Of a DNA stretch of 64,000 bases, positions 28,394-49,920 are shown in pieces; the stretch's first letter is position 1; every line of letters starts with the position of its first letter. The DNA lies in the NCBI GenBank assembly GCA_000146465.1, contig CP001952.1; one strand, written 5' to 3'. The translations under genes were made by a program, and so were the position numbers. Under the pieces are notes generated by a model, which was not told the DNA's origin, did no database searches, and saw only the letters and a list, made by a program, of their open reading frames with translations.

Positions 28394-28474
28394 TGGTGCA
28401 AGAGGGATTTGAACCCCCGCCTCAATGAGACTGGAGCCTAATTCCAGCGCCTTAGACCGCTCGGCCATTGCACC
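28394..28474 (-). tRNA. tRNA-Leu (anticodon UAG), type II with long variable arm
   Basis: Reverse complement reads GGTGCAATGGCCGAGCGGTCTAAGGCGCTGGAATTAGGCTCCAGTCTCATTGAGGCGGGGGTTCAAATCCCTCTTGCACCA. It has a 7-bp acceptor stem, a Leu-type D arm, anticodon loop ATTAGGC, a long extra arm and a GGTTCAAATCC T-arm. Coordinates ±2 nt. Confidence 0.85.
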
Positions 28475-32428: not shown

Positions 32429-32501
32429 GTGACATTGGCGCAATAGGTAGCGCGCTGGTCTCATAATCCAGAGGTTGCGAGTTCGAGTCTCGCATGTCGC
32501 A
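32429..32501 (+). tRNA. tRNA-Met (anticodon CAU), elongator type
   Basis: GTGACATTGGCGCAATAGGTAGCGCGCTGGTCTCATAATCCAGAGGTTGCGAGTTCGAGTCTCGCATGTCGCA. Acceptor stem with G1:C72 and one G·U pair, D arm GCGC/GCGC, anticodon loop CTCATAA, T-arm GCGAG-TTCGAGT-CTCGC. A U:U pair is predicted at 31:39. Coordinates ±2 nt. Confidence 0.85.
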
Positions 32502-41445: not shown

Positions 41446-43191
41446 ATGAAGGACCTGAGAACATATCTATCGGAAAGCAAGGTGGAACATCTATATCAAT
41501 TATTTGAGAGGCTTGGAATAGATGAGTCTCAGCTGTTAGCAAAACTTAAATATTCCGATTTGGAAAAAATAGGAATCGAGAATCTCATAGAAAGAAGAAA
41601 AGTTTTCGATATAATCAATGAGATCAACCAAGACATATACAAAGAGGATATAGAGATGAACGAAAATGACTCTTACAGAGATGAACTTCTTTCTTTTCCT
41701 TTTGGGCATAAGGAAGAAAGTAAGTGTGAGCACCAGCCTCTTGCTGGAAATATTGCAGAAAGGAGCAGCCTTTTGTTTGGAAGTGGAGAAACTATAAGCC
41801 AGAGATTATCTTTATGCTCTATGCCAAAAAGAAGTAGTCTTGAAAGATCTTTAATTGGGCTGGACGAGCTCGATCCAGATAGTAGCAGGACAATTTTGGA
41901 ATCACGCAACACAAATGCATCTGTCTTGGAGGATATTGTGGAGTCTGGGACAGGACTAGAAAAGATATCTGTGTGTGTTAGAAAAAGACCTACCACTAGT
42001 CCAAGTCTGGATATTGTTGATGTTGAAGGAAGAGGTGTTGTAGTCAATGAGGAAAAGCTTCGAGTGGATTTAAGGCCGTATATTGAACGTCATCGATTTG
42101 AATTTGATTACTCGTTTGATCTTGACAAGAAAAATATCGATGTATATAGGGAGTGTGTCAAAGGTGTTGTGAATCATGTGATTTCCGGGGGGTTTGGAAC
42201 CATTATAGCGTATGGACAGACTGGAACTGGAAAGACGTACACGATGCTGGAAAAGGACATAGGGATGGTCTATTTAGCAATTAAGGACCTTATGGCTTTC
42301 AAGAATTGTGGAGCCATAACGTTCTGCGAGATATACATGGGGCAGGTCCATGACCTATTGGATGAAGGGAAAATCATACAGCTGAGAGAAGTCAATGGGG
42401 TTGTGCATCTTTCTAACTCAAAAGAAGAGCAGTTCTGTGGATATAAAGAAGTACTTGAAATTATTGCCAAAGGAATGTCACTAAGGAAGACTGGTGTGAC
42501 AGGGGCAAACTCTAAGTCTTCAAGATCCCACGCAGTGATTCTGGTGAACTTTTCTGAAAGGAAAATAGAGAAGAATGATCAAAGAGTTCATTCAGGGTCG
42601 ATTGTATTTGTTGATCTTGCGGGGAGTGAGCGTGGAACAGACAGAAAGGAGATGGGATCAGACGTCAAGAACGAGGGTGCAGAAATTAACAAAAGTCTTC
42701 TGGCTTTGAAAGAGTGCATCAGAGGAATGGAGAAGGACAGGAAACATCTTCCGTTCCGCCAAAGTAAGCTAACACAAATACTTAAGAATTCATTTGTTGG
42801 GAAATCCAGAACCTGTTTGATAGCTACAATATCTCCAACACCTGAGAACGTTGAACATACTCTGAATACATTGAGATATGCAGCCCGAATAAAGGAAAGC
42901 ATTTTACCTCGAGAGAAGAGAAGTAGAGGGCCCTTCTGTGGTAGGACGTCTATAGGGCAAACCAAGTCATCTGATACAGAAACTAGAAAAGAAATCGAAA
43001 AGAGCCATCCTGATTCTCCCAGAACGGAATTGTTTAGTAGTAAAGAAAACCTTGTGTGCGAGATAAGAGAAATATTGCAGAGAGCCGAATCCAGGATTCC
43101 ATTACTAAAGACCTCAAAAGAACTTGAAAGGATGTTAGATCTCTGTAAAAAAATGGAGTATGAGATGGAATCTAATATAATGAAATATTAA
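41446..43191 (+). CDS. Kinesin-13 family motor with N-terminal SAM domain (KIF24/MCAK-like)
   Basis: IIAYGQTGTGKTYTM, SSRSHAV, FVDLAGSERG, NKSLLALKECIRGM and HLPFRQSKLTQILKNSF are kinesin-13 signatures. The N-terminal ~65 aa form a SAM-like helical bundle. Confidence 0.9.
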   Translation: MKDLRTYLSESKVEHLYQLFERLGIDESQLLAKLKYSDLEKIGIENLIERRKVFDIINEINQDIYKEDIEMNENDSYRDELLSFPFGHKEESKCEHQPLAGNIAERSSLLFGSGETISQRLSLCSMPKRSSLERSLIGLDELDPDSSRTILESRNTNASVLEDIVESGTGLEKISVCVRKRPTTSPSLDIVDVEGRGVVVNEEKLRVDLRPYIERHRFEFDYSFDLDKKNIDVYRECVKGVVNHVISGGFGTIIAYGQTGTGKTYTMLEKDIGMVYLAIKDLMAFKNCGAITFCEIYMGQVHDLLDEGKIIQLREVNGVVHLSNSKEEQFCGYKEVLEIIAKGMSLRKTGVTGANSKSSRSHAVILVNFSERKIEKNDQRVHSGSIVFVDLAGSERGTDRKEMGSDVKNEGAEINKSLLALKECIRGMEKDRKHLPFRQSKLTQILKNSFVGKSRTCLIATISPTPENVEHTLNTLRYAARIKESILPREKRSRGPFCGRTSIGQTKSSDTETRKEIEKSHPDSPRTELFSSKENLVCEIREILQRAESRIPLLKTSKELERMLDLCKKMEYEMESNIMKY

Positions 43192-46597: not shown

Positions 46598-47212
46598 ATG
46601 GATTTGGATGAAGATGTTTTATTTCTTGGAAACATTCCCGAGAGCTTCAACAACGAGCTTCTAATAGAGATGCTGAGTGTTTTTGGAGAGATTAAGGAGT
46701 TCAAGCGTGGTAAGGATCTAGAAGGGACAGACTCAAAGTGGGTGATTGTAAGTTACTATGAGAAATCATCGATCAGCAATCTCTATTGCAGCCTGCTGAA
46801 CAGAGACCTGGGACAGGGAATGGTGGTTGTTTTCCCGCAAAAAAAGGAATTACAAGCTTGGGAGGTCTCGGACGAGATACTCGGAAGAGTTGACGACATT
46901 GCAAAAAGATATAAAGAGAGACTCAAGAAAGAGGATTGCTTAGAGAAGTTTGTTTCCAGCTATGATTTGTTGTATGGTAGTACAGGAGATGGGCAAGTGT
47001 TTTCTGAAGCACTGTCAAAGTGGCTGGATGAAGAATCGGAAATACGCAGAAGATGCAGAAAGGCCGAGAATGACTTTGAAAGAACTGCAGAAAGGAAACG
47101 ACAGGAAGAATATTATTATCTATCAACTTATGACGATGACAGATCTAATGATTTATTTTATACTGATAGAGTTTCTTGGGCACTTAAAAGAAATAAAGAT
47201 GATGTTAAATAA
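46598..47212 (+). CDS. RRM-domain protein with basic/acidic C-terminal tail
   Basis: LFLGNIPESFNNELLIEMLSVFGEIKEF (RNP2-like) and VIVSYYEKSS. The C-terminus is Arg/Glu-rich. Confidence 0.5.
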   Translation: MDLDEDVLFLGNIPESFNNELLIEMLSVFGEIKEFKRGKDLEGTDSKWVIVSYYEKSSISNLYCSLLNRDLGQGMVVVFPQKKELQAWEVSDEILGRVDDIAKRYKERLKKEDCLEKFVSSYDLLYGSTGDGQVFSEALSKWLDEESEIRRRCRKAENDFERTAERKRQEEYYYLSTYDDDRSNDLFYTDRVSWALKRNKDDVK

Positions 47213-47263: not shown

Positions 47264-47574
47264 ATGGAGGGTAATCTTGAGACAAGGATATCTAGGGCCT
47301 TGGAGAATGAGTTCAAACCTGCAGCCTTAGAGGTTAGGAACACTACTGCCAATCATGTGGCCCATAGGAAGCCCGAAGATGGAAAAGTTCTTGAAACACA
47401 TTTTTACGTCAGGGTGAAGTCTTCGGCATTCAACGGAATGGTAAGTTAATGATCGCCGTATAATTTAAGAGATTTGCAGACAGGCATAGGCTTGTATATA
47501 AGGCACTTGAATTTGCTTTTGAAAAAGGCCTTCATGCAATTGAGATGGATTGCGATTCTGACGTCCAAGAGTGA
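47264..47574 (+). CDS. BolA-like protein, two exons (47264..47440 and 47470..47574) joined across a 29-nt intron
   Basis: Exon 1 ends ...VLETHFYVRVKSSAFNGM. The unspliced ORF stops 2 codons later. After removing GTAAGT...AAG, the frame continues RFADRHRLVYKALEFAFEKGLHAIEM..., which completes the BolA consensus (ETHF.V.IVS..F.G...RHRLVY..L...IHAL). Exon 2 end ±3 nt. Confidence 0.65.
47441..47469 (+). other. Spliceosomal intron (29 nt) of the BolA-like gene: GTAAGTTAATGATCGCCGTATAATTTAAG
   Basis: Canonical GTAAGT 5' splice site, TAATTT branch-like motif 3 nt from the 3' AG, and a length within the microsporidian range. Splicing restores the conserved BolA C-terminus in frame. Confidence 0.6.
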
Positions 47575-47719
47575 CTAGGATTATCTTTCTTTAATTTAAA
47601 TTTAATTTGATTTGATTTAATGGTGCCTTTGTCTTAGAAACTTCAATTTATACCTTTTTGGTAAAAAGAATTTATTCTTTTTTTTGTTTTACTTTAAATA
47701 ATGAACAAGGTTTTTGGCC

Positions 47720-48469
47720 ATGCTTCACCTATTATATCTTGCATTTGCCTTGTGCCATGAAGTTCCTGATGTATGCACTAGTTCTGGGATGATAGCAATC
47801 AACTTTGTAGATGGACCAGTCAGGGGAGTGACCGATAAGGTTCTAAACACTCTGGAAGAGCTTGGCGTGAAAGCTACTTTTTCGTTTACGGTGAACCAGA
47901 AAGCCGTCGGAAATGTAGGGCAGTTGTATAGGAGAGCAGTCAACGAAGGACATACTGTAGGATTGAGAGTCGATCCAAGGATGGATGAGGGATACCAAGA
48001 TATGTCTCAAGAGGCCTTGGAAGATAATATTGACCGGGAGATAGATACAATCGACGGACTCAGTGGAACTGAGGTGAGATATGCGTCTGTGCCCATATCC
48101 AATGGAGAGGTTAGCTCTGAGCTATATACCATCCTTACCCAGAGAGGTGTTCTTCCCCTAGGATATACCTTCTGCCCATATGACTACGACGACCCTATAG
48201 CCGAATTCGAAGCCATGATAGAAGGATCAGATCCCAAACACCATTCCTTCATCATCTTAATGCATGACGGACAGGAGGGAGATACTTCACGCTTGGAGAA
48301 GATGGTGGAGATAGGAGAGAAAAAGGGATATACTTTTACTAACATGGATGAATGTCTTCGAGGCTATAAAGGCTCTCCTGGAGATCCGGAGCTCAATCTC
48401 AGAGGAAAGGGTGCTGCAAGCCTCGCTACGTTCCTCCCTTTCTTCATGCTATTGGGGCGACTTCTCTAA
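47720..48469 (+). CDS. Polysaccharide (chitin) deacetylase-like protein with signal peptide and C-terminal GPI-type hydrophobic tail
   Basis: NodB-type region [26 protein letters not shown]...EGHTVGLRV...IILMHD. N-terminal [14 protein letters not shown] and C-terminal [19 protein letters not shown]. The listed start is TTG and the ATG is at 47720. Confidence 0.8.
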
Positions 48470-49725: not shown

Positions 49726-49920
49726 ATGAATGTTAGAGAGTCATTCATCAGTACAAGAAAGACAAATGTGTCTAGAGAAGATTCCGAGAAAGATTGCTAT
49801 GAGGAGGAATACTATAAATGGAGGATACGTGATTTGAAGAGAAAGATAAGAGACATTAGGAAAGAAATCATTCGGGCAAAGAACATTGGAACTTCCGGAA
49901 ATGATCCTAAAATTTATTGA
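49726..49920 (+). CDS. Small basic coiled-coil ORF (64 aa), questionable
   Basis: ATG ORF whose 3' end overlaps the TrpRS stop codon by 14 nt in convergent orientation. YYKWRIRDLKRKIRDIRKEI. Confidence 0.2.
   Translation: MNVRESFISTRKTNVSREDSEKDCYEEEYYKWRIRDLKRKIRDIRKEIIRAKNIGTSGNDPKIY

Follow-up and report, generated by a model that had tools for sequence, protein, structure and literature searches.

How is the BolA-like gene at nucleotides 47264-47574 (plus strand) read, and what is the short segment that breaks it? The gene lies in a window of 64 kb, the whole stretch of DNA analyzed here, which agrees with Encephalitozoon intestinalis ATCC 50506 chromosome XI (NC_014425) in sequence and coordinates and is read as its first 64 kb. 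Read without splicing, it gives ...SSAFNGMVS, in which the Val-Ser pair is followed directly by TAA TGA, and the resulting 61-aa ORF (47264-47449) stops two codons into the interruption. The BolA sequence continues downstream in the +2 frame, reading RFADRHRLVYKALEFAFEKGLHAIEMDCDSDVQE up to its stop codon, and deletion of 47441-47469 joins this segment directly to ...NGM in a 93-aa product. The original prediction had described the arrangement from the letters, with an ORF that stops after SSAFNGM-VS and a 29-nt segment that begins with GTAAGT, ends with AG, and carries TAATTT, and had attributed it to a microsporidian-type intron in a BolA-like gene. The description proved correct base for base, and the attribution is supported by all of our tests, namely the Pfam match, family spacing, a comparison of seven lineages, selection on exon 2, and the predicted fold.

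The product of the neighboring deacetylase gene matches its counterpart in E. intestinalis ATCC 50506 at 100% identity. The region holds one BolA-family gene, whose E. cuniculi orthologue is ECU11_0505; it is preceded by an RRM-protein gene (46598-47212) and followed by a chitooligosaccharide/polysaccharide deacetylase gene (47720-48469). This order is shared with E. cuniculi, E. hellem, and Ordospora, and ECU11_0505 adjoins ECU11_0510. The sequence of the BolA gene is identical in two more independent E. intestinalis assemblies (L001 and L011), three in all, and the only Logan contig that bears it has the unspliced, genomic layout. Exon 1, whose last codons are TTC AAC GGA ATG, codes for helix 1, strands 1 and 2, and the His-containing loop (H31 and H34), and it corresponds to positions 1-43 of the Pfam BolA profile. 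Exon 2 codes for the RHR helix, the last strand, and the invariant His81 (in GLHAIE); there is no in-frame ATG for it upstream within the intron. Between the BolA stop codon and the deacetylase gene runs an A/T-rich repeat of the AATTT type, tttaatttaaatttaatttgatttgatttaat (47590-47621), and a similar tract is found in E. cuniculi. AAATTT-like motifs have been reported to accompany high expression in microsporidia; ECU11_0510, beside the E. cuniculi BolA gene, is highly expressed (FPKM 960-2382).

Table 1. Features of the E. intestinalis BolA gene, with the preferred intron very probable, and the intron models deposited for the same DNA
Feature	Coordinates	Strand	Description
BolA exon 1	47264-47440	+	177 nt, 59 codons, Met1 to Met59; ATG at 47264
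Phase-0 spliceosomal intron	47441-47469	+	29 nt, GTAAGTTAATGATCGCCGTATAATTTAAG; GTAAGT...TATAATTTAAG
5' splice site GTAAGT	47441-47446	+	Invariant in 7/7 lineages; GT at 47441-47442
Branch-point hexamer TAATTT (TAAYTT class)	47461-47466	+	2 nt ahead of AG; TAATTT or TAACTT in 7/7 lineages
3' splice-site AG	47468-47469	+	Invariant context TTAAG/A (slash, junction)
BolA exon 2	47470-47574	+	34 codons + TGA; stop at 47572-47574
Deposited intron, 35 nt	47445-47479		91 aa; XP_009161910.1, AHL30165.1, UTX46389.1, KAL7346517.1; Pfam BolA 66.5 bits
Deposited intron, 29 nt	47441-47469		93 aa; KAL7348454.1; Pfam BolA 72.6 bits
Deposited intron, 27 nt	47445-47471		95 aa, wrong frame past the junction; KAL7344541.1; Pfam BolA 36.6 bits, profile 1-47 only

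We conclude that the BolA gene is very probably split after codon 59 by a genuine 29-nt, phase-0, U2-type spliceosomal intron of the short Encephalitozoon class. A first line of evidence is the protein that splicing would restore. Searched against Pfam BolA (PF01722), as had been proposed for the 93-aa product, the spliced sequence reaches 72.6 bits (curated gathering cut-off, 25.7 bits) and spans profile positions 1-72 of 76, whereas the unspliced 61-aa ORF scores 35.9 bits and covers positions 1-43 of 76. The spliced sequence passes the junction without a gap when it is aligned to the solved chains of Arabidopsis BolA1, the SufE1 BolA domain, Chlamydomonas UVI31+, and mouse and human BOLA1; in one example, AFNGMRFADRHRLVY is aligned to GFEGMNLVKRHRLVY.

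An AlphaFold model of the spliced protein, built with a 34-sequence family alignment, has a mean pLDDT of 87.5 and a pTM of 0.78. The predicted elements follow the order helix, strand, strand, helix, strand (H5-17, E21-26, E46-52, H61-71, H73-77, and E82-88), with the junction just ahead of the RHR helix in a region of pLDDT 96. The top PDB fold match of the model is Arabidopsis BolA1 (TM 0.83, rmsd 1.9 Å), and we predict on this basis that the spliced protein folds as BolA1. H31, H34, and H81 are invariant columns of the 34-sequence alignment, the last of them contributed by exon 2. Among PDB sequence matches, BolA1-type chains reach E values of 1e-11 to 2e-7 against 7e-3 for BolA2, and the fold ranks agree; as sequence matches and the predicted model place it, the protein is probably nearer to BolA1-type chains than to those of the BolA2 or BolA3 type.

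Could the splice signals be a product of chance? The composite motif GTAAGT-N(3-33)-TAATTT-N(0-4)-AG has a single occurrence in the 64-kb window, both strands included, against 0.09 expected from dinucleotide shuffles, and GTAAGT by itself stays at the chance level (21 observed versus 21.9 expected). What lies beyond chance is thus the combined motif, exactly where the BolA homology breaks off. Together with the G at 47440, the donor reads GGTAAGT (47440-47446) and is perfectly complementary to ACUUACC, the 5' motif of the Encephalitozoon U1 snRNA (PMC5499648). The accepted E. cuniculi introns have (GT)AAGT as the donor consensus, and 13/13 of them contain the branch hexamer TAAYTT (PMC2483917). 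The length of the intron (29 nt, and 25-30 nt in the orthologues) falls inside the range of 22-76 nt reported for Encephalitozoon (PMC3629993). One detail counts against the assignment, in that the branch hexamer is preceded by A and not by the commoner C (ATAATTT versus CTAAYTT).

The strict motif yields no intron in the window beyond the one in BolA, and a relaxed scan returned chance-like matches. The best-looking of these, a 25-nt GTAGGT...CTAAC...CAG at 41993-41969 on the minus strand, lies antisense in a 581-aa kinesin-like ORF (41446-43191, plus strand) and was set aside as chance. Just two RNA genes were detected in the window by Rfam and ARAGORN, a tRNA-Leu(TAG) at 28394-28474 (minus strand) and a tRNA-Met(CAT) at 32429-32501 (plus strand); the Rfam scan found no snRNA in the window.

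Orthologous loci, located through the neighboring deacetylase gene and a profile search, were compared in seven lineages: E. intestinalis, E. cuniculi, E. hellem, the Encephalitozoon-like Logan lineages L007 and L008, O. colligata, and O. pajunii. Comparison of this kind had been suggested by the original prediction, and it returned the same junction site and the same end motifs throughout, with ATG/GTAAGT...TAAYTTAAG/A (slashes, junctions) at the same codon boundary in 7/7 lineages. The intervening sequence is 29 nt long in E. intestinalis and L007, 27 nt in E. hellem and E. cuniculi (GTAAGTGCAAGCCTTCTATAATTTAAG in the latter), 25 nt in L008, 26 nt in O. colligata, and 30 nt in O. pajunii. 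These lengths span all three mod-3 classes, and the interior, the 8-14 nt after GTAAGT, varies among the lineages in both sequence and length. Removal of the segment with its conserved ends always restores [KR]xxDRHRLV...GLHAIEIDC. Exon 2 has no indels among the seven lineages, its dN/dS is 0.06-0.48 where dS is estimable, synonymous sites being saturated in many pairs, and its two other frames hold stops; as judged from the aligned sequences, it is under purifying selection. The conserved ends and position, the variable interior, the restoration of the frame, and the selection on exon 2 together form the hallmark of a conserved intron and effectively rule out a sequencing error, a recent pseudogene, or ribosomal recoding.

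Four further database proteins from relatives have M-VS (ATG GTA AGT) at the junction point and either end or continue there. One of the four, a 103-aa protein from Logan assemblies (P0013), comes from an unspliced ORF that reads through a stop-free, 27-nt homologue of the intron, leaving a nine-residue insert, VSRTFVNLK, at the junction. In this lineage, spliced and unspliced mRNA alike could encode a full-length BolA.

If an intron is present, where do its ends lie? The same E. intestinalis DNA has been deposited with three intron models of 35, 29, and 27 nt, which give proteins of 91, 93, and 95 aa (Table 1), and the three models are carried by three isolates. The annotators state that introns were added manually (PMC10158259; PMC12697097). 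The 95-aa model loses the BolA C-terminus. When all GT..AG pairs that keep this C-terminus were enumerated, only GTAAGT...TTAAG was available in 7/7 lineages. Spacing within the family points to the same pair, as in 31/31 other members of the 34-sequence alignment, which range from bacteria to fungi, F-x-G is separated from RHR by five residues, and the 29-nt model keeps this spacing.

One alternative retains the intron and gives it the ends of the RefSeq and telomere-to-telomere records (GTTAAT...TTGCAG), which would yield ...NGMVN/RHRLVY.... Its 35-nt intron is of the GT-AG type, stays in frame, passes Pfam, and has a geometrically equivalent pair in 6/7 lineages. Compared with the 29-nt model, XP_009161910.1 recognizes the same locus, start, stop, and intron but sets the donor at +4 and the acceptor at +10, so that two residues are lost and MVN replaces MRFAD. 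The donor so chosen, however, is unconserved and does not fit the strict (GT)AAGT consensus (GTTAAT here; GTCTTA, GTCAAA, GTGCAT, and others elsewhere), and the invariant GTAAGT and TAAYTTAAG are left without explanation. In E. cuniculi, the 35-nt model is impossible, as TGG stands at the place of the acceptor CAG. It also forces a two-residue deletion that is unique in the family and lowers the Pfam score from 72.6 to 66.5 bits, and the 10 nt that it counts as intron keep a constant length and change as codons do (K/R, hydrophobic, small). Introns in these records were, moreover, placed by hand (PMC10158259), and one species carries three models in three isolates. We regard these ends as very unlikely to be the true ones. 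Comparative evidence instead selects 47440^47470 among the three junctions deposited for the same DNA, and both the RefSeq 35-nt model and the 27-nt E. intestinalis model are probably wrong.

Similar discrepancies are found in the orthologous records. The deposited E. hellem protein (P0161, 93 aa, ...MVSLSN/RHR...; L003:2052-2357) implies a 24-nt GTTTAT...GCAG intron and needs a one-residue insertion seen in no other sequence of the 34-sequence alignment. It is probably mis-joined; under the conserved model, E. hellem would have a 27-nt intron and a 92-aa product (...GM/KFADRHR...). The E. cuniculi GB-M1 gene ECU11_0505 (L002:2051-2248) and the O. pajunii gene HK407_12g17040 (L009:2013-2216) are deposited as ORFs of 65 and 67 aa, both closed by a stop codon that lies within the intron; with 27 nt (E. 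cuniculi) or 30 nt (O. pajunii) spliced out, full BolA proteins of 94 and 96 aa would result. Table S2 of MicroAnnot lists 47264..47449 as a missed, complete gene of 186 bp (NC_014425), and the BolA intron is absent from its 19 E. intestinalis introns. Users of these proteomes, for BolA and Fe-S reconstructions, intron counts, or splice-motif logos, inherit the mis-joined or truncated models. A second missed gene in the same published table, at 49726..49920 (plus strand), codes for 64 aa, is called in newer assemblies, and has no Pfam match; its ORF overlaps the 3' end of an opposite-strand tRNA-synthetase gene by ~14 nt. Both missed genes of the table coincide exactly with ORFs of the window, which supports its placement on chromosome XI.

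These truncated entries bear on another alternative, in which no productive splicing occurs, the 61-aa ORF encodes the functional product, and the BolA-like stretch downstream is a decaying remnant. The truncated form has been deposited or curated in three places (MicroAnnot Table S2, ECU11_0505, and the O. pajunii entry), and short microsporidian introns are spliced inefficiently, so that the truncated peptide may be the commonest translation product. Yet exon 2 is free of indels and is under purifying selection in exactly the BolA frame, despite saturated synonymous sites, and it bears both the invariant His of the family and the RHR block. The 61-aa fragment, which covers only positions 1-43 of the 76 in the profile, would be unable to form the fold. 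In a decaying remnant, invariant intron ends around a scrambled middle would not be expected. We consider it just as improbable as the 35-nt ends that the fragment is the functional product. A sequencing error, a recent frameshift pseudogene, or ribosomal frameshifting or readthrough in place of splicing is hardly credible, for although the interruption is short and shifts the frame as an indel artefact would (29 nt, remainder 2 mod 3), three independent assemblies agree on the sequence, the insert has a complete set of splice signals, and no single recoding event fits an interruption that is present in every lineage, falls into all three mod-3 length classes, and in most cases contains in-frame stops (TAA TGA here).

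With the 29-nt intron as the preferred reading, its removal would proceed along conventional lines. U1 snRNA, through its 5' ACUUACC, would pair with G/GUAAGU at 47440-47446, and U2 would recognize the TAAYTT hexamer, in which the branch adenosine is probably nucleotide 47463, located 6 nt ahead of the 3' G. The acceptor would be the first AG past the branch hexamer. Splicing is then expected to join ...FNGM to RFADRHRLVY... and to complete a 93-aa BolA domain of the BolA1-like (His-loop) type, whereas unspliced mRNA would encode only a 61-aa fragment with neither the RHR helix nor the invariant His.

How much of the mRNA would be spliced is suggested by E. cuniculi, in which the BolA orthologue is expressed (FPKM 205-323) and short introns are reported to be spliced in <20% of transcripts on average (PMC6349667). 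Given this average, a large unspliced BolA fraction is expected, and most of the mRNA may stay unspliced. Retention of the intron could conceivably throttle or switch BolA output, the spliced fraction giving full-length protein and the remainder the 61-aa fragment. What speaks for such a role is that the intron has survived at one and the same codon throughout the Encephalitozoon-Ordospora clade, in which nearly all others were lost, and that its short class is spliced in a minority of transcripts; we nevertheless think a regulatory role improbable, if a little less so than either the alternative ends or a functional fragment.

The original prediction had raised the possibility that the splice site is un-annotated, and this did not hold. 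The intron is already known: RefSeq and GenBank annotate one in the BolA gene, and KAL7348454.1 (P0003, 93 aa, a 2025 record) has exactly the boundaries favored here and is identical to the spliced product first predicted. The new part is one of curation only, namely that the intron ends in the reference record are probably misplaced, as the comparison of lineages suggests. Accession updates from 2014 give 36 spliceosomal introns each for E. intestinalis and E. hellem; O. colligata has 30 (PMC4313915). The BolA intron is one of the ~36 short introns counted per Encephalitozoon genome, in a housekeeping, Fe-S-related gene, and represents ordinary biology. As to whether ECU11_0505 is among the 37 RNA-validated introns of E. 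cuniculi, a full-text search for the gene gave no match, and the paper supplements examined do not list it as an intron gene; Grisdale et al. (2013) name genes in a figure only. A literature search on BolA in microsporidia returned no relevant paper.

The closest known counterparts are the orthologues of E. romaleae SJ-2008 (P0012, 93 aa) and O. colligata OC4 (P0162, 96 aa), which share the synteny and the phase-0 junction after ...FN[GQ]M and differ only in the length (26-29 nt) and middle sequence of the intron. With the short introns of E. cuniculi (Katinka 2001; Lee et al. 2010; Grisdale et al. 2013: 37 introns of 22-76 nt), the BolA intron has in common the GT-AG ends, the GTAAGT donor, and a TAAYTT hexamer beside the acceptor. 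The original prediction held that the few known introns cluster at the 5' ends of ribosomal-protein genes; this view was superseded in 2010, when ~20 E. cuniculi introns were described that are not 5'-biased and lie mostly outside ribosomal-protein genes (PMC6349667). Like that set, the BolA intron is in a non-ribosomal gene, away from the 5' end, and has a length near 25-30 nt.

At the protein level, the nearest known systems are the BolA1-type proteins. Arabidopsis BolA1 (4pug), the SufE1 BolA domain (4pui), and human and mouse BOLA1 (5lci and 1v60) give both the best sequence matches (E 2e-12 to 2e-7) and, with the predicted model, the best fold matches (TM 0.73-0.83). As a member of this family, the microsporidian protein presumably works with a monothiol glutaredoxin in handling Fe-S clusters, and a mitosomal location is possible. 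It shares with the BolA1-type proteins His residues in the loop between strands 1 and 2 and the invariant C-terminal His. Unlike them, however, the microsporidian BolA is a bare domain, without an N-terminal extension or presequence.
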